Positions 5,483-37,747 of a DNA stretch of 64,000 nt are shown here, piece after piece (position 1 is the first letter of the stretch; every line of letters begins with the position of its first letter). Below the pieces are notes generated by a model that had not been told where the DNA came from, made no database searches, and worked only from the letters and a program-made list of their open reading frames with translations. A program made the translations under genes and the position numbers. This stretch comes from Bacteroidia bacterium (GTDB taxonomy: Bacteria > Bacteroidota > Bacteroidia > Flavobacteriales > Flavobacteriaceae): assembly GCA_030428865.1 (NCBI GenBank), contig JAUIEK010000009.1:4876-68875 (forward strand), in the 5' to 3' direction.

Positions 5483-6070
5483 CTATTTTTTTACCATCAA
5501 ACCATATACTACATGCCCAACTCCTGCAATTAACAGTGCGTTGTACCAATAAGTAGGAATGATAAAAGTTAACAGGGCAAGCATAAGAAAAAGACCTCCC
5601 ATAATGTATAATGATCTTTTTTTTCTAAAGTTATAGAGCAATAAGTAAATACCGTATAGCAACAGAAAAATAGCGGTTAACTGTAAGTAAAATCCTTGTG
5701 TATTTAAGTAATAAAGAACTAATATAACAACAATAGATAAAAAGAAACTAACCCAAAACGTAGCTTTGGTAGAGGCATTCCAAAACACCAAACTTTCTTT
5801 TCTGCAAATTCTTCTACTACTATAAAAAAGCGCGAAGTAAGAAAACAAAACAAATAATATCCCTAAAAATAAAATTTGATATTCAACCAATTCAATAGAT
5901 AATAGTAGTAATGGACTGCTATCAGATATAAATCCTTCTAGAATTGTTTTGGTAACGTAAGCAAAAATAAGCAGATAGATGCCAATTTGAATGCTGTTAA
6001 CACCCCTTAAAATAAAATTTGATTGCGAATTTATAGGTAAATTGTTACTTGTAACTTTTGCCATGATCAC
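5483..6070 (-). CDS. hypothetical integral membrane protein
   Basis: 195-aa ORF with several long hydrophobic segments. Confidence 0.5.
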   Translation of the reverse strand: MIMAKVTSNNLPINSQSNFILRGVNSIQIGIYLLIFAYVTKTILEGFISDSSPLLLLSIELVEYQILFLGILFVLFSYFALFYSSRRICRKESLVFWNASTKATFWVSFFLSIVVILVLYYLNTQGFYLQLTAIFLLLYGIYLLLYNFRKKRSLYIMGGLFLMLALLTFIIPTYWYNALLIAGVGHVVYGLMVKK

Positions 6071-6112
6071 TAGCTAATATACAAAAATTGATTCGGCAAT
6101 AGAAAGTTAAGC

Positions 6113-7069
6113 TTAAATGACTTGAACTTTAAATGACACAGCAAGTTCGTTATTAACAAAAAGATACAATTCTGTGTGAGTAGTTGGAGCAGGAATTGTC
6201 AAAAGTGAATTGATGGATTTTTTAATTTGTGGTTTTTTAGCGTATTGATCATTTTGGAAAACATAAAAAATAGATTCTTTTTCGGTAAGTCCTTTTACCT
6301 CGAGTTCTATAGATTTTCCCTTTTGTACTTTGATGATACCGGAAGTTGCTTTTGAAAAAGAGAGTCCTTTTCCTAAAAATGAATCAGTATAAATCGGTTG
6401 ATTATAGAAAGATTTCTTGCTATCAATTTTCCATAAAATTTGCCATTTTCTATCTATTGGAAAATGTGTTTTACCAATTAACTCAATAGGAATGTTAAAA
6501 TAATAAGCTCGAAAGCTTTTCTCCCACTTATTATTCAGTACATATCCAGCGGCCCAAGTAGCATCGATAATCATCCACTTGTTATTAATTTTTACAATAT
6601 TCCAGGCATGATTTGTTGCTGTTTCTGGTTTCCCAATACTCAGCGGAGAATTTCTGATATTTCCTTTTAAAACTTCGCATTCTATTTGCATTAAATCACA
6701 CAGTTTTTTTAGAGATTGCGCATATTCCTCACAAACACCTCTTTTATTTTTAAAAGCATCCGAAACAATTTTGTCTTTAATTTCTTTGACTTTTTGTAAT
6801 CTTTCAGCTTCATCAGTATAGCTAAAGCGAATAGACCTGTTTTTTTGATAAGAGTTGTCTAAACTATATGATATATTGTTTGTTAGCCATTTAAAGGCAG
6901 CTCGTACTTTATGGATATCTGAAGTAAAGTCTTTTTGAATCTGTTTAGCTAAATCTTCAACATTAGAATAGCGAGGGTACGAACTCACTTTTGCATCAAC
7001 CTTATCAAAAGATTGAGCTGAAATATGTTGGGAAATTATGATGGAGAGAAAAAACAAGAGTTTTTTCAT
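6113..7069 (-). CDS. secreted transglutaminase-like domain protein
   Basis: Cys-His-Asp pattern typical of the transglutaminase-like core: RGVCEEYAQ ... NHAWNIV ... IIDATWA. I place the start at the MKKLLFFLSIIISQHISAQ signal peptide; the longest ORF extends to 7135. Confidence 0.7.
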   Translation of the reverse strand: MKKLLFFLSIIISQHISAQSFDKVDAKVSSYPRYSNVEDLAKQIQKDFTSDIHKVRAAFKWLTNNISYSLDNSYQKNRSIRFSYTDEAERLQKVKEIKDKIVSDAFKNKRGVCEEYAQSLKKLCDLMQIECEVLKGNIRNSPLSIGKPETATNHAWNIVKINNKWMIIDATWAAGYVLNNKWEKSFRAYYFNIPIELIGKTHFPIDRKWQILWKIDSKKSFYNQPIYTDSFLGKGLSFSKATSGIIKVQKGKSIELEVKGLTEKESIFYVFQNDQYAKKPQIKKSINSLLTIPAPTTHTELYLFVNNELAVSFKVQVI

Positions 7070-7148
7070 AGCGTTTCGATTAAAAATTATAGAAACGAAT
7101 GGTTTATTAGGTCTCTCATTTTTAATCATTATCAAGATGTGCTTTTAT

Positions 7149-9502: not shown

Positions 9503-10210
9503 TTGAAAAAAAACTTAATAAACTTAATAGACGTATCGACCAAGCAAGGAAAGATTTTTTCAATATTTATACAAGTACTCATAGTAGTATCTTTAATTTC
9601 TTTTTCAATTGATACATTACCCAATCTAGAACTAGAAACCCGAAGAGTTTTAGGAGTTGTAGAATTGTTTTCTGTAGTCATATTTTCTTTTGAATATTTA
9701 CTAAGAGTTTATGTATCTCCAAAAAGACCAAAGTTTGTATTTAGTTTTTTGGGAATTATAGATTTGTTGGCAATTCTTCCTTTTTATCTTTCACTAGGTG
9801 TTGATTTAAGATCGTTAAGAGCATTTAGATTATTAAGGCTTTTCAGATTATTTAAATTAGTGAGATATAATAAGGCGATAAATAAATTTTCTACAGCTTT
9901 AAAAGAAGCAAAAGAGGAATTAATTTTATTTTTCTTCATTACAATTTTATTATTATATCTATCAGCTGTCGGGATTTATTACTTTGAAAATGAAGCACAA
10001 CCTGATTCGTTTTCTTCAATATTTGATAGTTTGTGGTGGGCTGTTGCTACTTTAACTACAGTTGGTTATGGAGATGTATATCCCGTTACTGTTGGAGGAA
10101 AAATATTTACTTTTATAATCTTATTAATAGGGTTGAGTATAGTTGCAATTCCTGCGGGAATAATATCTTCTGCTCTTTCAAATGTAGTAAGTAAAAAAGA
10201 AATTAAATGA
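9503..10210 (+). CDS. small voltage-gated potassium channel (ion transport family)
   Basis: K+ selectivity filter TTVGYGD. S4-like Arg/Lys repeat LRSLRAFRLLRLFRLFKLVR. TTG start. The stop overlaps the mpl start (ATGA). Confidence 0.8.
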   Translation: MKKNLINLIDVSTKQGKIFSIFIQVLIVVSLISFSIDTLPNLELETRRVLGVVELFSVVIFSFEYLLRVYVSPKRPKFVFSFLGIIDLLAILPFYLSLGVDLRSLRAFRLLRLFRLFKLVRYNKAINKFSTALKEAKEELILFFFITILLLYLSAVGIYYFENEAQPDSFSSIFDSLWWAVATLTTVGYGDVYPVTVGGKIFTFIILLIGLSIVAIPAGIISSALSNVVSKKEIK

Positions 10211-11562
10211 AAATTCATTTTATTGCAATTGGTGGTAGTGCCATGCATAACTTAGCGTTGGCATTGCAAAGTAAAGGCTATCAAATTACAGGAAGTGATG
10301 ATACTATTCATGAACCCTCAAAAAGTAGATTACAAAAGAAAGGATTACTACCTGAATCTTTTGGTTGGTATCCTGATAAAATTACTGCAGATTTAGATGC
10401 TGTTATTCTAGGAATGCATGCCAAATCTGATAACCCAGAACTACTTAAAGCACAAAAGTTAGGACTGAAAATTTACTCGTATCCTGAATTTTTATTTGAA
10501 CAATCTAAAGATAAAACACGTGTAGTTATTGGAGGTTCTCATGGGAAAACAACTATTACTTCTATGATTTTGCATGTGATGCAGTATCACGAAAGAGAAG
10601 TCGATTTTATGGTTGGAGCGCAATTAGATGGTTTTGATACAATGGTTCATCTTACAGAAAAAAATGAGTTCATGGTTTTAGAAGGTGATGAATATTTGAG
10701 TTCACCAATAGATAGACGCCCTAAGTTTCATTTATACCAACCAAATATTGCTTTAATTAGCGGAATTGCATGGGATCATATTAACGTATTTCCTACTTAT
10801 GAAAACTATGTAGAACAATTTAAAATCTTTGTTGATTCATTAACAAATGGTGGAATTTTAGTTTATAATGAAGAAGATGAAGAAGTAAAACAGTTAGTAG
10901 AGAAATCAGAAAATCCGATCAAAAAATATCCTTATAAAACACCTAGCCACAAAATAGAAAATGGTATTACTTATCTTGAAACTTCAGAAGGAAATTTGCC
11001 TCTAGAGATTTTTGGAGAACACAATCTGCAGAATTTAGCAGGAGCAAAATGGATATGCCAGCATATGGGTGTAGATGAAGATGATTTCTATGAAGCTATA
11101 GCTTCTTTTAAAGGAGCTAATAAGCGTCTTGAAAAGATTGCAGAGAATTCACTAACCACAATTTTTAAAGATTTTGCGCACAGTCCCAGTAAAGTAATTG
11201 CTACAACTAGAGCAATAAAAGAGCAATATTCGAATAGAAAAGTAATTGCTTGTTTAGAATTACATACCTACAGTAGTTTAAACGCTTCCTTTTTGCAGGA
11301 ATATAAAGGAGCTTTGGACACTGCAGATGAAGCAATTGTTTTTTACTCGCCAGATGCTGTAGCTATTAAGCAATTAGAAGAGGTTAGCAGAGATCAAATT
11401 TTAAAGGCATTTACAAGAGAAGATTTAGAAGTGTTTATTAATCCAAAAGAATTTGAAAATTTTTTGTTGAATCAGTCTTTAGAAAATAGTGTTCTGTTGT
11501 TAATGAGCTCAGGAAATTATGGAGGATTAAACTTTGAGAAACTTATTTCTTTGGTTTTATAA
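10207..11562 (+). CDS. mpl: UDP-N-acetylmuramate:L-alanyl-gamma-D-glutamyl-meso-diaminopimelate ligase (Mur ligase family, Mpl-type)
   Basis: N-terminus MKIHFIAIGGSAMHNLALAL..GSDD and Mur ligase P-loop GGSHGKTTITSM. 451 aa. Confidence 0.7.
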   Translation: MKIHFIAIGGSAMHNLALALQSKGYQITGSDDTIHEPSKSRLQKKGLLPESFGWYPDKITADLDAVILGMHAKSDNPELLKAQKLGLKIYSYPEFLFEQSKDKTRVVIGGSHGKTTITSMILHVMQYHEREVDFMVGAQLDGFDTMVHLTEKNEFMVLEGDEYLSSPIDRRPKFHLYQPNIALISGIAWDHINVFPTYENYVEQFKIFVDSLTNGGILVYNEEDEEVKQLVEKSENPIKKYPYKTPSHKIENGITYLETSEGNLPLEIFGEHNLQNLAGAKWICQHMGVDEDDFYEAIASFKGANKRLEKIAENSLTTIFKDFAHSPSKVIATTRAIKEQYSNRKVIACLELHTYSSLNASFLQEYKGALDTADEAIVFYSPDAVAIKQLEEVSRDQILKAFTREDLEVFINPKEFENFLLNQSLENSVLLLMSSGNYGGLNFEKLISLVL

Positions 11563-12646
11563 TTCTTAACTGAATTAGTTTTTCTCTTCTCCAGTTTTTA
11601 TCCATAAAACGGCGATACATCCAAATTCTATTTTCTTTTCTAGAAAATGACTGACGTATAAATTTAACTCTCTTTTTAATAGCTATCTTTCTTTTCCAAG
11701 TCTTAAAGTACTTTGCACGGAATTTATCATCGTGTAGTATTCTGTTGTAAATTTCTAAGTATTTTTTAGTTTCATCTTTTTCTTGAAATAACAAACTATT
11801 AGAGTTGAAAGTTTGGTTGCATACGGCTAAAAAGTTATTAATAGGATTGAATAATTTGTCAAAATGTTCAATAGCTTTTAATGAATCTGTTTTTTGACTT
11901 AACAAGAACACATCATATCCGTTTCGTAAAGACATGTTATTAAAATACTGCCCATCGTCATTAACTTGTTTTGCTAAAATGGCTAAACACAATTGATTAG
12001 CATAACTCATAAAAGTAATTCCATCACTCGAAATAGTGTTTTGAGAAACAGTATCAAAATTGAATTCCGTTTCATATCCTTCAATCAATAATTCTTTATG
12101 AATCTCTACGGCTGCAATTTTAGAAGAATGATGGAGCCTTGGTAAGTGTTTGAATTGTGGAAAATGATAACTTTCTTTTGAGACATTTTGATAGTTATTA
12201 CTTACTAGTAATTCAGCTGTTTTTTCATACTTCTTTTCAGCGACGATAAAATCAATATCACCCACCATTCGCTCACTAATATCATTATAAATTCCTTGTA
12301 AAATAAGTGCTGAACCCTTAACGAAAATAGGATTGATATTATGTTGTTTTAGTAATAAATTGATTTCCTTTACTTGCCCAATGATTTGCATATTTCTATC
12401 ACGATTTAGTGAAGAAATATGTTCCATGTATGCCACAAGTTCGTTAGGTAAGAGAGATAAAAGATTCTCTTTTTTTAGGTTATGATACAGTGCAGGGAAA
12501 ACGAAGTGTCCCGTACTAACTTTAACTATGTTATCCCAATCAACTTTATCTTCTTTTATGTTTTGCTTGATCCAATCAAGATTCTCTTTTTCATAAGAAA
12601 TAGTTAAGCATCTAGCTATAAAAAACAAGGCTTCTTTATAAGTCAT
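11543..12646 (-). CDS. Pol-beta-superfamily nucleotidyltransferase (uncharacterised NTP_transf_5-like family)
   Basis: The hG[GS]-x(n)-D-h-D-h signature is present as KGSALILQGIYNDISERMVGDIDFIV. Overall it resembles the nucleotidyltransferases found beside HPr-kinase-like genes in peptide-modification loci. The start overlaps the upstream gene by 11 nt. Confidence 0.65.
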   Translation of the reverse strand: MTYKEALFFIARCLTISYEKENLDWIKQNIKEDKVDWDNIVKVSTGHFVFPALYHNLKKENLLSLLPNELVAYMEHISSLNRDRNMQIIGQVKEINLLLKQHNINPIFVKGSALILQGIYNDISERMVGDIDFIVAEKKYEKTAELLVSNNYQNVSKESYHFPQFKHLPRLHHSSKIAAVEIHKELLIEGYETEFNFDTVSQNTISSDGITFMSYANQLCLAILAKQVNDDGQYFNNMSLRNGYDVFLLSQKTDSLKAIEHFDKLFNPINNFLAVCNQTFNSNSLLFQEKDETKKYLEIYNRILHDDKFRAKYFKTWKRKIAIKKRVKFIRQSFSRKENRIWMYRRFMDKNWRREKLIQLRIIKPKK

Positions 12647-13766
12647 TCGAGAATAATTTAGATACTAAATCAATCATTTCTTGATTATCCGAATAAGTTA
12701 AGGAATAACAGGTAGTTGATTGAAACCAATCTAAAAAAGTTTCTACGTTTTCGGATTCTTTAGATATCCAAGAATCAGGCAGAAGTTTATGAAAAGCATC
12801 TACTTTAGAAATTTTTTTAAGTGCGGTCTTACTCTCTTTAGCGTATTTAATAAAAACTAAGATGCTACAATTTTCAGTTTTTTTATAGTTCTGATGACTA
12901 GGAGGTAAGTAACGAACAGTTTTGTCAAGAGGAGCAAAATAGTACTCTTTTTCTGTTTTTATTTGAGGAAAATAAGTAGAAAGTAAATTCCAGCTATTTT
13001 TCTTTAAACTAATAGCTGATGGAAAGGTGTAGACTTTTTGGTCATTTCCCATGGGGACAAAATCATCAGCTATGCAGTGAAAATTGTGTGCCTGTAATAG
13101 GGCTAAAGAAGTACTCTTCCCATCTCCAGAATCTCCTAAAAATAATATTGATTGTTCTCCATTACTTACTGCAGAGGCATGAAAAACGCCTAGCCATTCA
13201 TCTTCTGGTTTGTTGTAGATTTCTTCTACAACAAGCATATTTACTTTTCCTTGTAGAAAATGTATATCTCTTCTTTTCCAAACGTCATAAAATTTTTCAT
13301 TTCTATATAAAAACGTATCCTCTTTTTTAGAGAAAAGCTGAAAATGTACATGAATAGCTTCTTGTTTTTCCACTTCTAAATAAGAAAATTTAGGGTGGAT
13401 TAATTCGAACTCGAAATAAGATTGATATTCAAATAAAAAAACCGTGTTATTAATTCTGTAATATTTTTTGTATTCATAATCCCGATCACTCTCATAATTT
13501 TTTAAATGATGTTTCTTTTCAGGTTGAAATTTTATATTGGGCTCTACAATATTTTTGTTGACGTCTTTTATAAAGCTGATAGCATCCTCAACAGGTATAT
13601 TTAATTCATTTGCTAGTGATTTTCCTATAAAATCAATTTCTTTTTTTTGAATTAAAGCGATTACAATTTCAGCAGTTTTATTTTCTAAAACAAGATATTG
13701 ATTAGCGGGAGCCATCCAAAGAACAGTTTTATCTTCTATAGGTTTTGTAAGAAATTGAATGCTCAT
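12636..13766 (-). CDS. PqqD-like (RRE) domain fused to an HPr kinase/phosphorylase-like P-loop kinase domain
   Basis: The N-terminal ~75 aa (VLWMAPANQYLVLENKTAEIVIALIQKKEIDFIGKSLANELNIPVEDAISFIKDV) follow the PqqD/RRE pattern. The C-terminal half has the HprK-type Walker A and flanks: FHASAVSNGEQSILFLGDSGDGKSTSLALLQAHNFHCIADDFV. Confidence 0.7.
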   Translation of the reverse strand: MSIQFLTKPIEDKTVLWMAPANQYLVLENKTAEIVIALIQKKEIDFIGKSLANELNIPVEDAISFIKDVNKNIVEPNIKFQPEKKHHLKNYESDRDYEYKKYYRINNTVFLFEYQSYFEFELIHPKFSYLEVEKQEAIHVHFQLFSKKEDTFLYRNEKFYDVWKRRDIHFLQGKVNMLVVEEIYNKPEDEWLGVFHASAVSNGEQSILFLGDSGDGKSTSLALLQAHNFHCIADDFVPMGNDQKVYTFPSAISLKKNSWNLLSTYFPQIKTEKEYYFAPLDKTVRYLPPSHQNYKKTENCSILVFIKYAKESKTALKKISKVDAFHKLLPDSWISKESENVETFLDWFQSTTCYSLTYSDNQEMIDLVSKLFSNDL

Positions 13767-13775
13767 AATTTGTTT

Positions 13776-14996
13776 TTAAAATTTTTTACCTGTAAATAAG
13801 GACTTTATTTTTAACCAATACACTTGGAATATTCGTTTAACAATTTTATTGAATTTAAAATTAAATAATGTATTAATTAAATCATCAATTGTTGTTTTTT
13901 GATGAAAAAATCGAATTCTATTTTCAATTTGTTCATCCGTATATTTACTATACATTCGCTTGCTAGAGACCTCAGAAATTTGCCACTTTAACAAGTTATT
14001 TTTACGCCATCTTTTTCGATATTTTTGGAAATCGGCACTTCCATTTGATAGAAACTGATCAATATATTCACAAGCCATTTCTGCACTTTGCATAGCATAT
14101 CGAATACCTTCACCACCTAGTGGGTTTACAGCAGAAATTGCATCACCAACCGCAACTACTCGATCTTTGTAAAAAGTATCTTGTATACTAGGGCTATAAC
14201 GCAACGTTCCGCCATGTACATCTAGTAGTTTGTAATTTTCTGTTTTTATATACTCTTTAATAATCTTTTCAGTAAGCTTTTTAGTGGTTTTAGTTGTTTT
14301 CTCCTGATCTTTTGAAGCGATATGAATTTTTCCTGAACCAACTTTTAGAACCTTATTTTCCATTGGAAAAATCCATGAATAACCTTTTAGAGCCCATTTA
14401 TGTCCTAGAAAAAAGACCAATCTATCTTTATACTGATCATAAGTTTCTTGATTGACCTCAATTTGATATTCTATTCCGCTTCCTAAAACCATTTCGGGCT
14501 GATCATTTTTAGAGTCGTACATTACTTTTCGCAAAGGGCCTGTTGCGTCAACTACGAGTTTAGATTTGAATTGTATGTTTTTTGATGTTTCGCTATCAAC
14601 TAATTCAACAATAACGCCATTACTTAGTACCTCTTTCTTAACATACCGATGTCCCATTAAAACTGTAGCTCCTTTTTCTTGAGCTTCATCAGCTAAAAAT
14701 TGTCGCAATCTGCCAAAATCTAAAACAGCACCTTTTGTTTCATTTCCTTTCCATATATATTCTTTTTCTGAACATTGAATAGAAAGATCTTTCCAATACG
14801 AACCAATGACATTATCAGGTAAATTAAATTCTTTTAACGGAGCCAACGTCATACCCGCACTAGAGAAGTTATTGTCTTGAAAACTAGCGTAACGTTCTAC
14901 TAATAATACAGAATATCCTTTTTTACTTAAGTTTCTAGCTGTTTGACCTCCAGCAGGCCCACCTCCTATGATAACAACATCATACTCTACAGTCAT
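13776..14996 (-). CDS. FAD-dependent oxidoreductase (geranylgeranyl reductase / group A flavoprotein family)
   Basis: Dinucleotide-binding motif YDVVIIGGGPAGG at the N-terminus. GYSWIFPM and the GDAISAVNPLGGEGI motif are also present. I place the start at MTVEYD; the longest ORF runs to 15047. Confidence 0.8.
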   Translation of the reverse strand: MTVEYDVVIIGGGPAGGQTARNLSKKGYSVLLVERYASFQDNNFSSAGMTLAPLKEFNLPDNVIGSYWKDLSIQCSEKEYIWKGNETKGAVLDFGRLRQFLADEAQEKGATVLMGHRYVKKEVLSNGVIVELVDSETSKNIQFKSKLVVDATGPLRKVMYDSKNDQPEMVLGSGIEYQIEVNQETYDQYKDRLVFFLGHKWALKGYSWIFPMENKVLKVGSGKIHIASKDQEKTTKTTKKLTEKIIKEYIKTENYKLLDVHGGTLRYSPSIQDTFYKDRVVAVGDAISAVNPLGGEGIRYAMQSAEMACEYIDQFLSNGSADFQKYRKRWRKNNLLKWQISEVSSKRMYSKYTDEQIENRIRFFHQKTTIDDLINTLFNFKFNKIVKRIFQVYWLKIKSLFTGKKF

Positions 14997-15061
14997 TAAT
15001 ACTTTAATTTCTAAAGTGAGTAAAGATAGTTTTTCAAGACGATTCAATAAAAATTAAAAAT

Positions 15062-15097
15062 AAAAAAAACTCACTTTTATAAAGTGAGTTTTTTTTT
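15062..15097 (-). terminator. intrinsic terminator/attenuator hairpin between small peptide gene 1 and the flavoenzyme gene
   Basis: 8-bp stem, ctcacttt (15070-15077) with aaagtgag (15081-15088). An A8 run and a T9 run flank it, so the stem is followed by a U-run on either strand. Confidence 0.6.
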
Positions 15098-15121: not shown

Positions 15122-15277
15122 TCAGAAACCTCCCCCTTGCCCTGATCCTGCTTGTGCGGTCTTAGGATTTAATAAAAAATAGGTTCCTAATGCAGTTAAA
15201 GCGGCGTATTTTCCATAATTACCTATTTTTTTTATGGCATCCTTACGAGTGATCTCGTTTTTTTGTGTATTTTTCAT
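15122..15277 (-). CDS. small precursor-like peptide 1 (51 aa): MKNTQKNEITRKDAIKKIGNYGKYAALTALGTYFLLNPKTAQAGSGQGGGF
   Basis: Translated by hand; it falls below the ORF-track length cutoff. ATG at 15275-15277, TGA at 15122-15124. It is a paralog of the ORF at 15502-15672, and the differences between the two copies are mostly synonymous. Confidence 0.6.
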   Translation of the reverse strand: MKNTQKNEITRKDAIKKIGNYGKYAALTALGTYFLLNPKTAQAGSGQGGGF

Positions 15278-15501: not shown

Positions 15502-15672
15502 TTAGAAACCACTTCCTAGTCCCGAGGGAGTGGAACCCGCCTGAGCTGTTTTAGGGTTTAATAATAGATAAGTTCCTAAAGCGGTTAAGGTTGCATATTT
15601 TCCGTAGTTTCCTATTTTTTTTAAAGCTTCTTTACGAGTTATATCTTTGTTAGATTTTGATTGATCTTTCAT
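15502..15672 (-). CDS. small precursor-like peptide 2 (56 aa): MKDQSKSNKDITRKEALKKIGNYGKYATLTALGTYLLLNPKTAQAGSTPSGLGSGF
   Basis: Translated by hand. ATG at 15670-15672, TAA at 15502-15504. The start lies about 18 nt downstream of the stop of the 990-aa gene. It shares a 37-residue block with peptide 1. Confidence 0.6.
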   Translation of the reverse strand: MKDQSKSNKDITRKEALKKIGNYGKYATLTALGTYLLLNPKTAQAGSTPSGLGSGF

Positions 15673-15689
15673 AATAATATTAAATGTTG

Positions 15690-18662
15690 TTATTCAATAA
15701 TAATTTTCTTGTTCACAGACTTACCAGCAGTATCTAACTTTATAATGTAAATACCTGTATCTATGTTAGGAATACTTATATCATTTACAGAATTGCCTTC
15801 AAAAGAAATATTAAATACTTGTTGTCCAATAGTATTATACAAGCTGATATTAGTCGTTCCATTTTGTAAACCAACAACTCTTATGTTATTACTGCTGGTT
15901 TGGTAAATACTTAAATTATTTGTATCTAAATCATCCCCTGAACTTAAAACTCCTTGGTTTACGTGAAGATAAAAGCGACCGATACCATTTGTGTTTACAT
16001 TTATATTAGTATCATATTTTTCAACTTCGTTTAAATTGATAAACGTTCCTGCTTCTTTATCTTCTAGATATATATTATATCCATTAGGAAGGTTTGCTAT
16101 ATTTATAGAAAAGCTAATTTTGCCAGAATTATTAACATCAACACCTATAGGAATTATCATATTCTCATAATCAGAGTTTGGAAGCGATTGAATACCTAAC
16201 CTCTTTCCTTCTCCATCAGCAACAGCATGTGTGTAGAATGAAAAACTTTCATTTACACCAGAAAAGATAGAACTATCGTATCCATTATCAAATCCTGTTG
16301 TTGCTCCGTCAATAAAATAAATCTTAGTACTTCTTGTTATAGATCCATTTGTGGCAATCAATTCAATTTTTGCTTTTTCGGTTTCAGTATTATTTCTTTG
16401 AAATGAATCTGTTTGATGTGACTGCATTGCCTCAGTTATACTTAATGTATTTGCTCCATTGGAGTTCACAAAAAAACCTTGGCCTGGTGCAATATAGAAT
16501 GCTTCTGATGCTTGATTTATTTGATCGTAAGAAGAGGTTGATTGATTCCAGCACCAAAGAGTAGCTTCGGTAAGTAAATCAGAATCAATATCGTTTAATC
16601 TTAGGATATTATTTATGCCATCAGCACTATCATTAACAGCAATGTAAGATGGGTAAGGATTTCCTATGGCATTAAATCCGTTTATGTTTGAGGTAATGGA
16701 GATACCAATATCTGAAGTAGGGATAGTTCCTGTAAAAGAAATATTACCAGCTGAAGCTAATTTTACAGCATAACCTGTTCCAGAATTTACTGCTCCAGTA
16801 GAAGCTGCTGTAGAGTAATTCCAGTTAGTTCCATCATTAGCATAAGTAGAAATACCAATGTTACTACCAGTACCTGTATCAAAAGTATGATTTGCAATTA
16901 AATCTTCTATTGTTTCTCCAACAACAGGAGAAGAAACCAAATACCAGTTATTTGTAGCTAATACTCTTGTATATGTTACATTACCAGATGCAGTACCAGA
17001 AACTCTTAAAGAACCTCCACTAGCAATAGATAAGCCATCTGGTTCTGTTATCATAATGTCGTTGACTTCTGCACCAGTAGAAGCGCTAATAATTGGAGCA
17101 TTTATAACATCTGGAATAATCGCGTTTAAAGAACTCGTTGGTATACCATTGCTCCAGTTGCCTAAAGTTGCCCAATCTGTACCACTTGAACCCGTCCAAG
17201 TTGTTGCTAAAGAGATGTCAAAATCTTCGATTCTCCAAAGTTCTGTTGATCCACCACCTGTTCCCGTTGAAGTATAACGAAAAGCAAAAACCACAGCAGT
17301 ACCAGCAATACCAGATACATCTACATTACCAGAACTTGTACTTGTTTGTGAATCTGATGCTGGCCAAGTAGGACTTAAACTACTATTCCAACTAGTTGTT
17401 GATGGATCTCCTGTATAATTTGTTGTGTATAAAAATTCAATTTGTGGGCTAGAAGCATCAGCAAATCGAGTCCAACTGTTAAACGTTAAAACCTCACCTG
17501 TTTGAGCATCCATGTTAAATGATGGGCTGATTAAATAATCATCAGCAGCGCCTGAAGAATCAAAAGCATTCGCTTCAAAGTATCCGCTACCACAAGTCCA
17601 TTCCAGTTCTGCGCCTACAGTAGCTACTGTCCAATTTTGAGTGTTACAATCAGAAAAATCTTCATTGTAAGGAATAGAAGCTATAGGAAGCTCATCATCA
17701 GTTATTGTTACTGTATGTTGACTAGTTCCTAAATCTGCAGTGCCAGAAGAAACAGTAATGTTTAGAACTACTGTTTCATTATCACTATCAGCATCATTAT
17801 TGATATCTAGAGAGATGTTTTGAGTTCCGTTTGCATTGAAAACTAAAGAAGTTGTATTTAAAGTATAATCTCCACCTTCAGCAGTACTAGAACCATCAAC
17901 CGTAATACTTATAGTAACTGGAGCATCATGATTTGTAAATGTAACTGGGATATTTGCGCTAAAAGTGATATCTGTTTCGTTTTCAAAACTTGAGGCTGAA
18001 TCAAAGCTCACGGTAGGATTAGAAGCATCTGTAACAACAAGTGCTGTGGTATCGAAAGTTTGACCTGACCCAGAAGTAGTCCATTGAGCTGAATTATAAA
18101 TATTAATCAAATGCCCTGTTTTATTATTGCTAGTTCTTACTCCTGAATAAACACCATTGTCTCCGCCAAAATAAACAGCATTAGTACCTAAAGTTAACCC
18201 TGTACCTGTTAATGTTCCAGCATCACCACTATCTTCCCCCGCAAACCCTAAAATAGTATATGTTCCTGTATTGTATACGTTAGTAGAGGTTTGATAAATA
18301 TAAACACCATCACCACTATTACTTAAAGTGATATTACCTGCTCTTTGGGTTACAACTCCTCCATTCGACATAGTATCAGAATTGGCATCGTAAGTAAAAA
18401 CAGTGCCTGCAGTTATTGAAGGTGTTACCCACTCGTAAAAACCTTCTCCAGAGTTGAAAGATGAGCCATTCCATTCATCATCCGTGATGAATACTGATTG
18501 ACCAGAGGGTATGTCTGCTAATGCAACTAGAAGGATTTCTTCATTATCTACACCCACACCAATGATTGCTATATCTCCAGCAGATAAAGTTTGAGCATTT
18601 AAGTTGATGTTGCATAAAAACATCAATGGTAGTACGAATTTTAAAAAGTAATTTTTTTTCAT
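15690..18662 (-). CDS. large secreted surface protein with a T9SS C-terminal sorting domain
   Basis: Signal peptide ending NAQT. Calx-beta-like segment (GGDYTLNTTSLVFNANGTQNISLDINNDADSDNETVVLNI). Ser/Thr/Gly/Asn-rich beta-repeat regions. The C-terminal ~80 aa (ISLYNTIGQQV...GIYIIKLDTAGKSVNKKIIIE) are typical of Por/T9SS CTDs. Confidence 0.85.
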   Translation of the reverse strand: MKKNYFLKFVLPLMFLCNINLNAQTLSAGDIAIIGVGVDNEEILLVALADIPSGQSVFITDDEWNGSSFNSGEGFYEWVTPSITAGTVFTYDANSDTMSNGGVVTQRAGNITLSNSGDGVYIYQTSTNVYNTGTYTILGFAGEDSGDAGTLTGTGLTLGTNAVYFGGDNGVYSGVRTSNNKTGHLINIYNSAQWTTSGSGQTFDTTALVVTDASNPTVSFDSASSFENETDITFSANIPVTFTNHDAPVTISITVDGSSTAEGGDYTLNTTSLVFNANGTQNISLDINNDADSDNETVVLNITVSSGTADLGTSQHTVTITDDELPIASIPYNEDFSDCNTQNWTVATVGAELEWTCGSGYFEANAFDSSGAADDYLISPSFNMDAQTGEVLTFNSWTRFADASSPQIEFLYTTNYTGDPSTTSWNSSLSPTWPASDSQTSTSSGNVDVSGIAGTAVVFAFRYTSTGTGGGSTELWRIEDFDISLATTWTGSSGTDWATLGNWSNGIPTSSLNAIIPDVINAPIISASTGAEVNDIMITEPDGLSIASGGSLRVSGTASGNVTYTRVLATNNWYLVSSPVVGETIEDLIANHTFDTGTGSNIGISTYANDGTNWNYSTAASTGAVNSGTGYAVKLASAGNISFTGTIPTSDIGISITSNINGFNAIGNPYPSYIAVNDSADGINNILRLNDIDSDLLTEATLWCWNQSTSSYDQINQASEAFYIAPGQGFFVNSNGANTLSITEAMQSHQTDSFQRNNTETEKAKIELIATNGSITRSTKIYFIDGATTGFDNGYDSSIFSGVNESFSFYTHAVADGEGKRLGIQSLPNSDYENMIIPIGVDVNNSGKISFSINIANLPNGYNIYLEDKEAGTFINLNEVEKYDTNINVNTNGIGRFYLHVNQGVLSSGDDLDTNNLSIYQTSSNNIRVVGLQNGTTNISLYNTIGQQVFNISFEGNSVNDISIPNIDTGIYIIKLDTAGKSVNKKIIIE

Positions 18663-18772: not shown

Positions 18773-20272
18773 TTACGCTCTACGCCAAAAAGAAGGAGAA
18801 AACAAGATAAGAACGGTAAATAATTCGAGTCTACCTATTAGCATTAAGAAAGAGCAAAACCATTTAGCTCCGGTTGATAAATGTGCGAAATTATCTACAG
18901 GACTTACGCTACCAATTGCCGGACCAATATTTCCTAAACTAGAAGCTGCTGCGCCCATTGCAGAGATAAAATCAAGACCAAAAAATGTGAGAATAACAGA
19001 AGAGGTCATGAAGATGAGCATGTAGATTACAAAAAAAGACAGAATATTAAATACAATGTGTTGCTTGATAGCTTTCCCGTTGTATCTAACAGGAATAATT
19101 GCATTTGGGTGTAAGGATTTTTTAAATTCTAAAAAGCTGTTTTTTAGCATTATAATGTGTCTCATTACCTTAATACCTCCACTTGTAGAGCCCGCAGATC
19201 CTCCTAAAAAGAATAAAGCAAAGAAAATACCAGAAGCAAAAAAACTCCACATGGTAAAATCTGCGGATACAAAGCCTGTTGTAGTAATAACAGAAATCAC
19301 TTGAAATAAAGCATGCCGGATAGCACTTTCTGTTTCTCCAAAAACTTTAGGATGCTCAATTGAAGTTTGTAAAGTTGGTTCTTGAAAAAACAGAATGATA
19401 ATGGCAATAATACTTGTAATGCTAAGGATAGCGAAAACATAATATCTAAACTCTTCGCTTTCTATTACTTTTCTAACTTTTCCTTTCAAAGCAAAATAAG
19501 TTAGCACAAAGTTTGTGCCTGCAATGAACATGAAAAAGATGACAATGTATTGAATAATTGGGAAGTTGTTATAATGAGCTAAGCTAGCATTTTTAGTAGA
19601 AAACCCACCAGTACTAACAGTAGCCATTGCATGATTGATAGCATCAAACCAAGTCATTCCTGCTATTTTTAGCAAGAAAAATTCGGCAAATGTTAAAACA
19701 ACATAAATTAACCATAACCGCTTGGCTGTTTCCGTTATTCTTGGATGTAATTTATCTGCAGAAGGACCAGGCGCTTCAGCAGAGAATAACTGCATGCCTC
19801 CAATACCCAATAATGGAAGAATAGCAATGGTAAGCACAATAATTCCCATACCGCCGATCCAATGTGTAGCACTTCGCCAAAAGAGAATACCTTTGGGCAT
19901 TGATTCTATATTGTTTAGAATAGAAGAACCTGTAGTAGAATATCCAGAAATTGTTTCAAACAAAGCATCTGTTATATTTGGTATTGTGTCCGAGAGAAGA
20001 TATGGTAAACAGCCTGTGAAACTCAATGTTAACCAACCTAGAGTAACTATTAAATAACCTTCTTTACGCTGAATATTTGTGCTTTTGGGTTTATTTAATA
20101 CATATAATAAAAAGCCAATAATAACTGTAATAGTGCCTGCTCCTAATATACCCCATTGTGCTTCTTCATCATAATACCAGCTAAAAGGATAGGCTATAAA
20201 CATAAAAAAGCCATTTAAGATAGCAGTGAGCCCTAAAAAGCGTAGTATGATTTGTTGGTTTAAGCTTTGCAT
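18773..20272 (-). CDS. trkH: Trk/Ktr-type potassium uptake protein, membrane subunit
   Basis: 499-aa polytopic protein with repeated pore-loop-like GGF/GGS segments, adjacent to trkA. Confidence 0.9.
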   Translation of the reverse strand: MQSLNQQIILRFLGLTAILNGFFMFIAYPFSWYYDEEAQWGILGAGTITVIIGFLLYVLNKPKSTNIQRKEGYLIVTLGWLTLSFTGCLPYLLSDTIPNITDALFETISGYSTTGSSILNNIESMPKGILFWRSATHWIGGMGIIVLTIAILPLLGIGGMQLFSAEAPGPSADKLHPRITETAKRLWLIYVVLTFAEFFLLKIAGMTWFDAINHAMATVSTGGFSTKNASLAHYNNFPIIQYIVIFFMFIAGTNFVLTYFALKGKVRKVIESEEFRYYVFAILSITSIIAIIILFFQEPTLQTSIEHPKVFGETESAIRHALFQVISVITTTGFVSADFTMWSFFASGIFFALFFLGGSAGSTSGGIKVMRHIIMLKNSFLEFKKSLHPNAIIPVRYNGKAIKQHIVFNILSFFVIYMLIFMTSSVILTFFGLDFISAMGAAASSLGNIGPAIGSVSPVDNFAHLSTGAKWFCSFLMLIGRLELFTVLILFSPSFWRRA

Positions 20273-22426: not shown

Positions 22427-23731
22427 TTGGTTTTAGTATATACACATAAAATTACACCTAGATTACGGTATATTTTTAAGCATATTTTTACGCGTATTCT
22501 AGATTTAGAAGTTGATTTTACTGATAAAGTTCAAAGTTTTGTTGCACATAACGGACCTAAGCTTTCCTATACAAAAAACGCCTTAGGAACCGAGTTTTTT
22601 ATACGGTCTTCCGATTTACTTTTTGAACAGGGCATTACGGACATTGATATAAATATTGCAGGTTGGGATGATCTGCCTTGTTTTTTTTATGTAGGAGGAA
22701 AAAGTGCTATTCCGTTTGATATTTTTGCAGCAAGTTTTTATCTAATAACTCGATATGAAGAATATCAGCCTCATGTAAAAGATATTCATGGTCGTTTTAC
22801 AGCAAAACAAAGTATAGCCTACAAAGCACGTTTTTTAGAAAAACCATTAATAGATATTTGGGCTTATAAGTTTCTAAAAATCTTACAGAGTAAATTTAAT
22901 AAAATAGAATTGCCAGATAGAAATTTCACATTTTTATCAACCATAGATATAGATAACGTGTTTGCTTATAAACAGAAAAGTATTATTCGATCTATTGCAG
23001 GATTTACACATGATCTTTTTCGACTAAAATTCAAACCTTTTTTTTATAGAGCACTCGTTTTATCAAAAATATTGAAAGATCCTTATGATACTTTTCAAGA
23101 GCTATTAAGGTTGCAGAAGAAGTATAATATTGAATCATTATTTTTCTTTTTGATAGGAAACTATACTACTTATGATACAAATATTTCTACTTCTAAAGCG
23201 AAGTTTAGGTTATTAATTAAACACATTGCAGATTTTTCGCGAGTTGGACTTCATCCTTCTTACTTTACTATGGATGATATTGATTTGTTGAAAAAAGAAA
23301 AAGAACGCTTGGAGTTAATCACAAACATTCCCGTATCATGCTCGCGTCAGCATTATCTTCGTTTGAGCTTGCCAGAAACATATCAAAACCTTATTGATTT
23401 GGAAATCTATGAAGATTATTCTATGGGGTATGCCAGTCACGTTGGTTTTAGAGCAAGTACTTGTATTCCGTTTTACTTTTATGATTTGGAGTTTGAAATT
23501 CAAACACCACTAAAAGTTTATCCTTTTGCTTTGATGGATACTACATTGAACGATTATATGAAATTAACACCTAAACAATCTGTAGGAAAAGTAGGAGAAC
23601 TTTTGCAACAAGTGAAATCTGTAGGAGGAACATTTATTACACTTTTCCATAACGAAAGTTTGAGCAATTATGGAAGATGGAGAGGATGGTCTCGATTATA
23701 TGAAGCGATGTTAAAGAAAGTAACTCAATAA
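22427..23731 (+). CDS. conserved hypothetical, polysaccharide deacetylase-like protein (TTG start)
   Basis: The N-terminus VLVYTHKITPRLRYIFKHIF resembles a conserved Bacteroidota family usually annotated as polysaccharide deacetylase family. This assignment rests on memory only. Confidence 0.45.
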   Translation: MVLVYTHKITPRLRYIFKHIFTRILDLEVDFTDKVQSFVAHNGPKLSYTKNALGTEFFIRSSDLLFEQGITDIDINIAGWDDLPCFFYVGGKSAIPFDIFAASFYLITRYEEYQPHVKDIHGRFTAKQSIAYKARFLEKPLIDIWAYKFLKILQSKFNKIELPDRNFTFLSTIDIDNVFAYKQKSIIRSIAGFTHDLFRLKFKPFFYRALVLSKILKDPYDTFQELLRLQKKYNIESLFFFLIGNYTTYDTNISTSKAKFRLLIKHIADFSRVGLHPSYFTMDDIDLLKKEKERLELITNIPVSCSRQHYLRLSLPETYQNLIDLEIYEDYSMGYASHVGFRASTCIPFYFYDLEFEIQTPLKVYPFALMDTTLNDYMKLTPKQSVGKVGELLQQVKSVGGTFITLFHNESLSNYGRWRGWSRLYEAMLKKVTQ

Positions 23732-24630
23732 TGATTATTTTTTTAGAAAGAGAGCAGATAGATGTAAATGCTTATGATACTTGTGTAACAAACTCTATTC
23801 ATTCTGAAATTTATGCGCTTTCTTGGTATTTAGATATAACAACAAATAATTCTTGGTGCGTTCTTGTTTTAGATAATTATAAAGCTGTAATGCCGCTTCC
23901 TTACAGAAAAAAAATAGGAATTCGTTATGTATACCAACCGTTCTGGAGTTTGCAACTAGGAGTTTTCTCTTCAAAAAAAATAGATATTAGCATCTTTATA
24001 AAAGAAATAAAAAAACATTTTTCTTACGCAGAGTTGCGTTTAAATCCAGGAAATTCTGAATTTAAACTACATGGTAATTTTGAAAATAAAACCAAACAGG
24101 TTTTAAAGGTTTCTAAGCATTTTAGTATAGATCAATTTCGAAAAGATCGGAAAAAAGATTTGAGAAAAGCTGCTGAAAGTAATTTGATTTTTAAAAGAAC
24201 TACCTCATCAGTTAACTTGATTAAACTTTATAAGCGAAGTATCGGAAAAAGAATACAGAAGTTATCAGCATCAGATTATATAAATTTAGAAAATTTAATT
24301 TGTGCTTGTTTAAGTACAGAAAAAGGAGTTGTTTTTGAGGTATATGCTGATAAAGAAGTGGTTGCTGCAGCATTTGTTTTGCTATATAAAAATAAAGCTA
24401 CGATTCTTGCATCTGCCACCGATTTGCAAAACAGAAGTAATGGAGCAAATACTTTTTTGCTTACTCAGATTATAAATTACTATAAAAACCAGATTATAGA
24501 GTTTGATTTTGGAGGATCTTCTATTCCTTCTATAGCATCATATTTTAAAAGCTTTGGAGCAGAAACGATTAACTATCTTTTTTTAAAAATTAATAATTTG
24601 CCTTTTCCCATTAAACTTTTTAAAAAGTAG
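23731..24630 (+). CDS. GNAT/FemAB-like acyltransferase-fold protein (tentative)
   Basis: 299-aa ORF whose start overlaps the upstream stop (ATGA). The resemblance to FemAB-like GNAT proteins is weak and not verified. Confidence 0.4.
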   Translation: MIIFLEREQIDVNAYDTCVTNSIHSEIYALSWYLDITTNNSWCVLVLDNYKAVMPLPYRKKIGIRYVYQPFWSLQLGVFSSKKIDISIFIKEIKKHFSYAELRLNPGNSEFKLHGNFENKTKQVLKVSKHFSIDQFRKDRKKDLRKAAESNLIFKRTTSSVNLIKLYKRSIGKRIQKLSASDYINLENLICACLSTEKGVVFEVYADKEVVAAAFVLLYKNKATILASATDLQNRSNGANTFLLTQIINYYKNQIIEFDFGGSSIPSIASYFKSFGAETINYLFLKINNLPFPIKLFKK

Positions 24631-25231
24631 ATTTCACAAATTCTTGAAATTTTTCAGGAAGCTTTTTATTAAATGTAATCAAATTTAAATCTTGATTATA
24701 AGGTTCTTTCTTCTTGATTACTTTGCAAGGATTTCCCACGGCTATTGAGTTTGAAGGGATATCTGAAGAAACTAAAGAATTGGCTCCAATAACAACGTTG
24801 TTTCCTATTGTAACTTCTGGAAGAATAGTGGTATTTGCTCCAATCCAAACATGATTGCCAATCGTAATTTTTTTAGATGTGGAGTGTTTGCTTAAATCTT
24901 CTAAATTATGATTGGCAGAAATAATAGAAACTCCGGGTCCTAACTCTACGTTAGAACCAAAATCAATTCCATTAATTGCTTGAATGTAATTATTGATATT
25001 ATCTCCAGGATCACATAAAATTCCTTTTGAAATGTTGTTTGGAGCGATCACTTTAGAAGTGAAATGAACAGGCCATTTTACTTTAGGATTCAGTCTGAAA
25101 ATTTTTTGAGGAATCCAGTAATGAAAAAATAAAATATAGTAACGTTGATAGCCCGATTTAGGTCTGTAATATTGTGGATATAACCAATTAATTAAGCGTC
25201 CAAAAATAAGAAAGTCTAATCGGGTTAGCAT
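24620..25231 (-). CDS. hexapeptide-repeat (left-handed beta-helix) O-acetyltransferase
   Basis: Hexapeptide repeats: GNHVWIGANTTILPEVTIGNNVVIGANSLVSSDIPSNSIAVGNPCKVI. Confidence 0.8.
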   Translation of the reverse strand: MLTRLDFLIFGRLINWLYPQYYRPKSGYQRYYILFFHYWIPQKIFRLNPKVKWPVHFTSKVIAPNNISKGILCDPGDNINNYIQAINGIDFGSNVELGPGVSIISANHNLEDLSKHSTSKKITIGNHVWIGANTTILPEVTIGNNVVIGANSLVSSDIPSNSIAVGNPCKVIKKKEPYNQDLNLITFNKKLPEKFQEFVKSTF

Positions 25232-26805: not shown

Positions 26806-26811
26806 TATAGT

Positions 26812-33136: not shown

Positions 33137-33161
33137 AAGTTTCTAAATATAATTTTGTTTT

Positions 33162-36113: not shown

Positions 36114-36232
36114 TATTATACTTTTTGAATTAATTAGGCCAAAAGTCCTAAATTAATCTTAAAGATCCAATTTTTTAACATAAAAAACATGGTGATTTTT
36201 AAAAAAACGCTTGATAGGACTTCAATAAATTT

Positions 36233-36259
36233 AAAAGACCGTCATAATGACGGTCTTTT
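36233..36259 (-). terminator. intrinsic terminator between the two SusC/D pairs
   Basis: Stem aaaagaccgtca with tgacggtctttt, flanked by A and T runs. Located downstream of the SusD-like gene at 36307. Confidence 0.55.
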
Positions 36260-36306
36260 AAATTTATAAGAATAAAATTATTCCTTAAAACTAAAATTTT
36301 TAAATT

Positions 36307-37737: not shown

Positions 37738-37747
37738 TGTCTTATTT

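Follow-up and report, generated by a model that had tools for sequence, protein, structure and literature searches.

What does a kinase phosphorylate when it is fused to a domain of the kind that binds leader peptides? The question is raised by one gene in a 64,000-nucleotide stretch of DNA from a marine member of the Flavobacteriaceae (Bacteroidia bacterium, GenBank assembly GCA_030428865.1, contig JAUIEK010000009.1, positions 4,876 to 68,875 of the forward strand), which we refer to as the window and number from its first nucleotide. In the window's list of open reading frames (ORFs), the ORF at 12636..13766 lies on the minus strand and encodes a protein of 376 residues; the plus-strand translation of the same interval is full of stops. 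An initial annotation had read this protein as a PqqD-like domain joined to the catalytic core of an HPr kinase/phosphorylase (HprK/P). PqqD-like domains of this kind are known as RREs, recognition elements for peptides that are made on the ribosome and modified after translation (RiPPs), and we call the protein the RRE-kinase. Our analysis leads us to consider it probable, though by no means certain, that this single-chain protein is the centre of a four-gene Bacteroidota module, in which the leader of an adjacently encoded peptide docks onto the RRE domain and a serine of the same peptide is phosphorylated. The module consists of a large protein sorted by the type IX secretion system (T9SS), at least one small precursor peptide, the RRE-kinase and a nucleotidyltransferase of the NTP_transf_5 family.

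Within the RRE-kinase gene, we distinguish the following parts (pLDDT is the AlphaFold per-residue confidence, HMM a hidden Markov model):

13527..13766, minus strand: RRE domain (PqqD-like winged helix), residues 1-80 of the 376-residue protein, assigned from the AlphaFold2 model, Foldseek and HMM matches of homologues
13479..13526, minus strand: variable linker, residues 81-96, with low pLDDT and poor alignment conservation
12639..13478, minus strand: HprK-related kinase body, residues 97-376, a β-rich subdomain followed by a P-loop domain like that of phosphoenolpyruvate carboxykinase (PEPCK) and HprK
13167..13181, minus strand: HASAV, residues 196-200, its histidine aligned with the catalytic-core histidine region of HprK/P
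13110..13136, minus strand: Walker A motif or P-loop GDSGDGKST, residues 211-219, aligned to the P-loop of HprK/P
13062..13070, minus strand: ADD, residues 233-235, the equivalent of the catalytic aspartate pair of HprK/P, aligned to the ADD of 1jb1 and 1ko7

The N-terminal domain is recognizable mainly by its structure. Pfam PqqD had no match in the window protein at E<=1 and matched 16 of 40 homologues weakly, with a best, sub-threshold E-value of 2.4e-4. When the N-terminal 88 residues of 26 family members were scanned in isolation, PqqD_rel_WgkC matched 16 of them (best 2e-5), lasso_PqqD_Strm 14 and TIGR04353 two; the threshold of a curated PqqD family was reached neither by the window protein nor by its homologues. 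Since a Foldseek search with the whole protein was dominated by PEPCKs and silent on the N-terminus, we modelled and searched the N-terminal 88 residues separately. The resulting AlphaFold2 model (pLDDT 90.5) has strands at residues 5-10, 13-18 and 23-28, and helices at 29-39, 44-55 and 59-78, which is the three-stranded antiparallel sheet followed by three helices of the RRE winged helix. In the Protein Data Bank (PDB), the six best Foldseek matches of this domain were TbiB1 (5v1u, 5v1v) and TfuB1 (6jx3), with TM-scores of 0.64-0.72, root-mean-square deviations of 2.5-3.3 Å and a probability of 1.0; the structures of both proteins were solved with bound leader peptides. The next matches after these lasso peptide RREs include the RRE-bearing McbB, ThcOx and CteB, as well as PqqD itself, and a search of the PDB with the family profile also found TfuB1, weakly. 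The PqqD-like reading of the N-terminus, for which the initial annotation had quoted residues 23-69, is therefore borne out by the predicted fold, by the matches to lasso RREs and by the HMM matches of the homologues.

Residues K13, W17, N22, Y24 and E28 of this domain are invariant and F65 is conserved in at least 90% of the members; they lie on strands 2 and 3 and on helix 3, with N22 and Y24 on strand 3 and F65 on helix 3. In solved RRE complexes, the leader sits between strand 3 and helix 3. By way of the invariant N22 and Y24 and the conserved F65, the domain thus supports leader binding, if only indirectly.

In the C-terminal part, the HprK/P motifs that had been proposed for residues 195-245 or so, HASAV, GDSGDGKST and ADD, are found where they were expected. 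An alignment of 40 homologues, 44-52% identical to the query save for one close relative at 88%, shows H196, A197, S198, G211, D212, S213, G214, G216, K217, S218, T219, A233, D234 and D235 to be invariant; the exception in the P-loop is its second aspartate, D215, which is an asparagine in nearly all other members. The protein has the motif set of HprK/P, a P-loop GxSGxGKS with an upstream histidine and a downstream ADD, and an RRE in place of the HprK/P N-terminal domain. Single-sequence searches against Pfam and the PDB gave marginal matches only (Hpr_kinase_C with E 0.058, P-loops of ABC transporters), so that family-wide scans and structure prediction were needed. For all 40 homologues, the best-matching curated family is NCBIfam TIGR04352, HprK_rel_A (40 of 40, best 8.6e-19). 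The window protein matches it with E 9.5e-16 and 57.7 bits, against a cut-off of 200, over residues 194-371 and positions 98-280 only of the 280 in the profile. Further NCBIfam matches among the homologues were to the HPr(Ser) kinase TIGR00679 (23), HprK_rel_B (22) and ScmC (11), and in a profile search of the PDB the P-loop region of the family, GDSGxGKS...ADD, aligned to HprK/P of L. casei and S. xylosus.

A full-length AlphaFold model computed from the alignment of the 40 homologues reached a pLDDT of 91.3 and a predicted TM-score (pTM) of 0.87, and hence predicts a fixed arrangement of the two domains. Only in the linker, residues 81-96, does the pLDDT drop (to 67 in the full-length model and to 54 in the N-terminal one). 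Foldseek matched the full-length model to ATP-dependent PEPCKs (1e-6) and to HprK/P (2qmh and 1kkl; 1.5e-3, probability 1.0), two groups of enzymes that have one common nucleotide-binding fold. Together, the matches of the RRE and the kinase parts far exceed what would be expected by chance.

Some homologues are recorded in the databases as 'HPr kinase' or 'serine kinase', and the matches of 23 of the 40 to TIGR00679, weak as they are, could be taken to mean that the protein is a genuine HPr kinase/phosphorylase in carbon catabolite control. We give this explanation next to no credence: the window protein scores 12.4 bits against a cut-off of 240 for TIGR00679 and 13.4 against 33.3 for PF07475, its match goes no further than the P-loop core, it has an RRE where HprK/P has its N-domain, and the gene is embedded in a module with peptide and transferase genes. 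None of 27 scanned ORFs of the window is a component of the phosphotransferase system, a scan that did not extend to the whole window for ptsH.

The RRE-kinase is the representative of a large family without informative annotation. A database search yielded 1,103 homologues, of which the best 120 are all 369-395 residues long at 98-100% query coverage; all of the named ones are Bacteroidota, with Polaribacter and Tenacibaculum predominating. We also searched 1.8 billion representatives of clusters at 50% identity exhaustively with an HMM and retrieved 4,859 clusters at E<=1e-3, 1,651 at E<=1e-10 and 370 at E<=1e-30. Nearly all of the best 150 representatives have 370-390 residues, in alignments that start at about position 3-15 and run to the end, which shows that the fusion itself is widespread, and not merely the kinase. 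Ten distant representatives were looked up, and the two that have organism names come from a 'Bacteroidota bacterium' and a 'Marinilabiliales bacterium'. One representative, P0123 (490 residues), aligns only from profile position 84 onwards; where the others have the RRE, it has 196 residues of a different kind. In the open-access literature and bioRxiv, we found no paper on an RRE-kinase fusion or on this Bacteroidota family, and nothing relevant on HprK-related kinase A or on RiPPs with kinases in Bacteroidota; the RRE-Finder paper and a structure-based RRE paper of 2025 make no mention of kinases.

Further evidence for a peptide substrate comes from the genes around the RRE-kinase. In the window, it is part of a co-directional run on the minus strand, given here in the order of transcription, with the flavin adenine dinucleotide (FAD)-dependent enzyme between peptide A and the kinase:

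15690..18662, minus strand: large T9SS-sorted protein, 990 residues, preceding the peptide genes (Por_Secre_tail, TIGR04183, E 4.6e-8)
15502..15672, minus strand: precursor-like peptide B, 56 residues; leader 1-45, ending in AQA, at 15538-15672 and core GSTPSGLGSGF at 15505-15537
15122..15277, minus strand: precursor-like peptide A, 51 residues; leader 1-43, ending in AQA, at 15149-15277 and core GSGQGGGF at 15125-15148
15062..15096, minus strand: terminator-like hairpin (16-bp A/T-rich stem, then a run of T), directly past peptide A and ahead of the FAD and kinase genes
13776..15047, minus strand: FAD-dependent oxidoreductase of the geranylgeranyl-reductase family (TIGR02032, FAD_binding_3)
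12636..13766, minus strand: RRE-kinase, 376 residues
11543..12646, minus strand: NTP_transf_5 (PF14907) nucleotidyltransferase, 367 residues (Pfam E 3.7e-36), its start overlapping the kinase stop by 11 nucleotides

The run is bordered by trkH (18773-20272) and by a gene for an Mpl-type ligase on the opposite strand (10207-11562). We fetched 80 genome loci and mapped the window proteins onto them, which was informative in 74 loci for the peptide and in 75 for the transferase. In almost all mapped loci, the RRE-kinase lies between trkH and mpl. The NTP_transf_5 gene is directly downstream of the kinase, with the same overlap of start and stop, in 66 of 75 loci, and 47 of 74 loci encode a homologue of the peptide at most 400 nucleotides upstream of the kinase or, where one is inserted, of the FAD gene. 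All 47 of these have a homologue of the T9SS protein upstream of the peptide.

The arrangement extends beyond this neighbourhood. Four distant loci (L081, L082, L084, L086) have unrelated flanking genes and still encode a large protein, a peptide of 52-65 residues and an RRE-kinase in this order; NTP_transf_5 follows the kinase in L081, L082 and L086, which are all the distant loci with sequence past the kinase. Their large proteins are encoded at:

L081, 3094-5634
L082, 1409-5728
L084, 2106-5663
L086, 3482-5758

The C-terminal region of the large proteins, about 450-500 residues ending in the T9SS sorting domain, is 28-32% identical between the window and the distant loci, and the four distant proteins are 28-41% identical to each other in the region they share. 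The large protein upstream of the peptide genes is thus a family of its own; it contains no Pfam domain, and a PDB sequence search with its conserved region returned only noise (nanobody matches, E>0.05). This synteny of the peptide gene, in 47 of 74 and in the four distant loci, lends further weight to a ribosomal peptide as the substrate, an inference that the initial annotation had drawn from the fusion itself.

The oxidoreductase is not a constant part of the arrangement. It scores 157.7 bits against TIGR02032, for which the cut-off is 158.8, and E 6.7e-19 against FAD_binding_3. A FAD gene is found at this position in only four of 74 other loci (L004, L013, L033, L077), so we regard it as accessory and not as a core component. 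The peptide cores of L004, L013 and L033 are of the ordinary ASPEDPGTGF type, and in L077 no peptide gene was detected.

The peptides themselves are precursor-like. Their family counts 1,257 database entries, which are about 51-61 residues long and all without a name or a Pfam domain, and is thus close in size to the family of the kinase. We aligned 60 distinct peptides from the mapped loci and the four distant ones and obtained the consensus M-(variable, Lys/Asn-rich)-I[ST]RKEA[LI]KKIGNYGKYAALTALGTYxILNPxKAQA-xSPExPGxGF, with a leader that follows the pattern I[ST]RKEA[LI]KKIGNYGKYAALTALGTY.ILNP.KAQA (leader fragments: RKEALKKIGNYGKY; ALTALGTYLLLNPKTAQA). Across the loci, the conserved peptide gene encodes 51-65 residues, of which the core makes up 8-14. 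R11, L36 and P38 are invariant. At least 90% of the peptides have a serine at core position +2, just past the AQA and usually as Ser-Pro. The last residue is a phenylalanine in 60 of 60 flavobacterial peptides, and the four distant ones have a tryptophan at the C-terminus or a phenylalanine or tryptophan among the final four residues. The two window peptides combine the conserved leader with Gly-rich cores. In L074 (3620-4051), we observed a version of 143 residues, which shares the leader and opens its core with STPPDPGGGGGTF, then continues with a long extension rich in Cys and in Asn/Gly and with a tail of KSKY repeats.

Judged by its sequence, the leader looks like a signal peptide: its first 24 residues have a net charge of +4 to +5, a hydrophobic stretch of 12 residues has a mean Kyte-Doolittle value of 1.6-1.7, and a proline at -6 and usually two basic residues stand ahead of the AxA site. 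Its S/T-R-K-x-A-L-K-K resembles a signal of the twin-arginine translocation (Tat) pathway. One could hence suppose that the leader is primarily a Tat-type signal and that the RRE-like domain serves mainly as a chaperone, which holds the export signal until the peptide is modified, as in Tat proofreading. The moderate hydrophobicity, the Pro at -6, the basic c-region with its AxA and a module without exporter or peptidase would all suit such a role, as would the bufferins, RiPPs modified by MNIO enzymes and exported via a general (Sec) signal peptide (PMC11626156). Like the peptides here, bufferins have a signal peptide of the general secretion type where a classical leader would stand, and an RRE-containing partner, with no dedicated exporter or peptidase; they differ in their thiooxazole chemistry, in folded products of 60-70 residues and in a signal peptide that is dispensable for modification. 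We nevertheless consider a chaperone as the main role of the domain unlikely. The TAT_signal profiles TIGR01409 and PF10518 had no match in the peptides, Tat-target families gave single weak matches among 28 peptides (E 0.011-0.11, one of 28 each), and the second position of the twin arginine is a lysine in 59 of the 60 aligned peptides and a serine in the remaining one. With HMM support absent and R-K in place of R-R, we rejected the leader as a recognized Tat signal. Moreover, holding of the export signal is compatible with leader-docked phosphorylation and does not exclude it.

Under the explanation that we favour, the ribosome would make a peptide of 51-59 residues, whose conserved leader would be bound by the N-terminal RRE domain, bringing the short core to lie beside the fused HprK-like P-loop domain. 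With ATP, the kinase would then phosphorylate the near-invariant serine at core position +2 (xSPExPGxGF in the family, GS... in the window), perhaps more than once, and the translationally coupled NTP_transf_5 protein could elaborate the phosphate, for example by phosphoglycosylation. Since neither a peptidase nor an exporter is encoded in the module itself, the general machinery probably takes care of export and leader removal. A peptide of this length would be off the ribosome about when its hydrophobic segment emerges, which may leave time for modification in the cytoplasm. The hairpin at 15062-15096 may attenuate transcription as a terminator and so adjust the amount of precursor relative to the enzymes.

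The closest precedent is found in Bacillota, where clusters for linear polyphosphorylated peptides (LPPs; Popov et al., Nat Commun 2026) combine a precursor, the HprK-like kinase LppK, a discrete RRE (LppB), a leader peptidase resembling signal peptidase I (LppS), an exporter and the NTP transferase LppN, and contain no cyclase (PMC13381572). LppK adds several phosphates to Ser3 of the core, LppB presents the leader to the peptidase and LppN was inactive in a heterologous host; the clusters are described as restricted to Bacillota, and their domain table (Supplementary Data 2) gives the families PqqD and NTP_transf_5 (PMC13381572). The window module resembles them in having a PqqD-type RRE, here as a fused domain, an HprK-like kinase and an NTP_transf_5 protein next to a linear precursor without a cyclase. 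The serine lies near the leader cleavage site in both (core position 3 in LPPs, +2 after the AxA here), and the LPP leader is cut by an enzyme of the signal peptidase I type, while the leader in the window ends in an AxA of the signal peptidase type. In this comparison, the near-invariant serine is consistent with (poly)phosphorylation of the LPP type near the N-terminus of the core, as far as can be judged from sequence.

The differences are considerable. The RRE is discrete in LPP clusters and fused to the kinase here; the window module has neither a dedicated peptidase like signal peptidase I (TIGR02228) nor an MsbA-like exporter, both of which are also lacking in the distant loci; its leader lacks the motif YxxPxVLxHQxIxFETxxS; its cores have 8-14 residues compared to 45 in the characterized LppA; it includes a large T9SS-sorted protein; and it occurs in Bacteroidota, not in Bacillota. 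The module is best described as a fused, Bacteroidota-specific form of the peptide-phosphorylation systems built from an HprK-like kinase, an RRE and NTP_transf_5, with an enzymology that is inferred throughout.

HprK-like kinases that act on ribosomal peptides are also known from lasso peptide clusters of the paeninodin and pseudomycoidin type, where the kinase phosphorylates the C-terminal serine of the precursor, PsmN, a nucleotidyltransferase, attaches a hexose to the phosphate and the RRE (B1) is a protein by itself (PMC8498205). The initial annotation had stated that RRE and kinase are separate proteins in the systems known to it, which agrees with these clusters and with the LPP clusters and their Supplementary Data 2 (PMC8498205, PMC13381572). 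A kinase of the HprK superfamily acting on a precursor serine before leader removal, followed by the addition of a sugar by an NTP_transf_5-type enzyme, would be shared with the lasso systems (PMC8498205). The lasso target is a C-terminal serine, though, whereas the peptides here end in phenylalanine and have their conserved serine near the N-terminus of the core.

Could the RRE-kinase nonetheless be the tailoring kinase of a lasso pathway? The pairing of an HprK-like kinase with NTP_transf_5 is typical of tailoring of the paeninodin type (PMC8498205), and the sole Asn_synthase-like protein of the window, encoded at 25225-26805 about 6.5 kb from the operon, offers itself as the cyclase. This protein reaches 26 bits against a lasso cyclase cut-off of 525, over just 100 residues, and its gene is surrounded by those for a MOP flippase, an acetyltransferase and a sugar deacetylase, as in a glycan locus. 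Within the 8-kb flanks of the related loci, a homologue is found in a single one (L042, which has no adjacent peptide), and the distant loci have none. We rejected it as a lasso cyclase on the grounds of its sub-cut-off score, its glycan locus and its failure to travel with the module. The module contains no lasso cyclase, B2 (Transglut_core3) peptidase, dedicated leader peptidase or exporter, in the window or in the distant loci, and the cores in the window have no aspartate or glutamate at positions 7-9 for ring closure. A tailoring role with this gene as cyclase is accordingly very improbable, and for the module as such we exclude a lasso pathway. The domain assignments of the initial annotation stand, then, and the system is not a lasso system.

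As to the group of genes at 22427-28098 to which 25225-26805 belongs, it is of the glycan type and includes a VimE-like sugar deacetylase, the MOP flippase, a 299-residue protein without NCBIfam match and an ORF of 203 residues that we read by eye as a hexapeptide-repeat acetyltransferase. The Asn_synthase-like protein has 526 residues and aligns from position 117 only of the asparagine synthase profile.

In the NCBIfam collection, the system closest to the window module is HPr-rel-A, which, according to the description of TIGR04353, comprises the HprK-related kinase A (TIGR04352), the closest curated family of our kinase, and a PqqD family peptide chaperone (TIGR04353). The PqqD partner is a separate protein there and fused here, with two of 26 N-terminal domains matching TIGR04353 weakly, and the window protein falls short of the kinase family, at 57.7 of the required 200 bits and over positions 98-280 of its profile only.

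Several observations weigh against leader-docked phosphorylation of the adjacent peptide. Neither domain reaches the cut-off of a curated family in any of its HMM scores. The transferase is absent in nine of 75 loci, where mpl follows the kinase, and in 27 of 74 an intact kinase, usually still with its transferase, has no peptide gene within 400 nucleotides upstream, the place often being taken directly by trkH (loci without peptide or transferase include L005, L010, L021, L022, L032, L042, L053, L061, L067 and L076). Alternative precursor genes upstream of the kinase were not found in the 18 peptide-less loci examined, so the substrate in such genomes would have to be encoded elsewhere or be something else. 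The peptide of L050 has an asparagine for the conserved serine, and the leader lacks the [Y/W]xxP motif that is bound by lasso-type RREs. The peptide genes are physically nearest to the T9SS gene: peptide B starts 18 nucleotides past the stop of that gene, and between peptide A and the enzyme genes stands the terminator-like hairpin. Finally, the RREs of known lasso and LPP systems were shown to serve the leader peptidase and not the kinase, and lasso kinases need no leader and little beyond the C-terminal serine (PMC8498205, PMC13381572), which leaves RRE-guided phosphorylation without direct precedent.

From the peptide-less loci, the asparagine variant, the RRE precedents, the proximity to the T9SS gene and the hairpin arises the main alternative, in which the kinase has another substrate, such as a small molecule, a protein or the precursor of the T9SS cargo, while the RRE-like domain serves as a generic winged helix for docking or regulation and the peptide belongs to the T9SS protein, as a secreted or membrane-anchored micro-protein co-transcribed with it. 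The tight coupling of peptide and T9SS gene fits this well, all the more as the two are duplicated as a unit in about ten genomes (e.g. L003, L007, L008, L023, L039, L057), and so does a leader that looks like an ordinary signal peptide. It is less easily reconciled with an N-terminal domain whose best structural matches are peptide-binding RREs and not DNA-binding winged helices, with the order of peptide, kinase and transferase persisting in distant Bacteroidota among unrelated flanking genes, with the same trio of enzymes acting on a linear peptide in LPP systems, and with the near-invariant serine in the core. We regard this alternative as a minor possibility, yet one to be taken seriously, and phosphorylation of the peptide as the probable function.

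Some further observations concern the surroundings of the module. L049 (2682-5884) has three tandem NTP_transf_5 paralogues after the kinase, and downstream in L040 (1752-5292) and L047 there are pieces of the transferase, the remains of a kinase and an ORF (MTQYATLTALVTYLILSPQKEQAFSIETP) that looks like a truncated peptide; these arrangements suggest local duplication and decay of the module. A transglutaminase-like protein with a hydrophobic, signal-like N-terminus is encoded in the window at 6113-7135 on the minus strand (PF01841, E 1e-11), about 4.4 kb past the point where the module ends and about 5.5 kb from the kinase, and L019 has a homologue at 5896-6906, about 1 kb upstream of the kinase. 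It matches Transglut_core and not the type of the B2 peptidases, its best NCBIfam match, far under the cut-off, is to a transglutaminase-related lipoprotein family, and it is probably a matter of conserved neighbourhood only. The two tandem SusC/SusD-like pairs at 31646-40975 on the minus strand, each a TonB-dependent receptor with a SusD-family lipoprotein, are typical polysaccharide-utilisation genes of Bacteroidota and bear no relation to the RRE-kinase.

Phosphorylation is a rare modification in ribosomal natural products. To our knowledge, lasso kinases and LppK are the only enzymes of this superfamily that have been studied on ribosomal peptides, in systems where a separate RRE serves the peptidase. 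A covalent RRE-kinase would be the first architecture to argue for a leader-guided kinase, and peptide and enzyme would form a compact two-component system in which site-specific phosphorylation of peptides could be studied and engineered. Most likely, the phosphorylated ribosomal peptides of Bacillota have an as yet undescribed relative in Bacteroidota, whose presence the RRE-kinase reveals.

A broader proposal, which we offer as tentative and do not consider probable as a whole, is that the module defines a RiPP class that is Bacteroidota-wide and has so far gone undescribed. In such a class, the leader would be both the dock for the RRE and an export signal of the Sec or Tat type, leader-guided phosphorylation of serine by the RRE-kinase would be the defining step, NTP_transf_5 would elaborate the product, and a phospho- or phosphoglycopeptide of 8-14 residues ending in Gly-Phe or Trp would do its work alongside the T9SS protein, either in the periplasm or on the cell surface, for instance as that protein's ligand, cofactor or covalent decoration. 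The T9SS-sorted surface protein and the signal-peptide-like leader point to a function in the cell envelope over that of a classical antibiotic. Members of the family are frequent in Flavobacteriaceae that abound in the sea, Polaribacter and Tenacibaculum among them, and a role in their cell envelope would extend the story of the LPPs beyond Bacillota.

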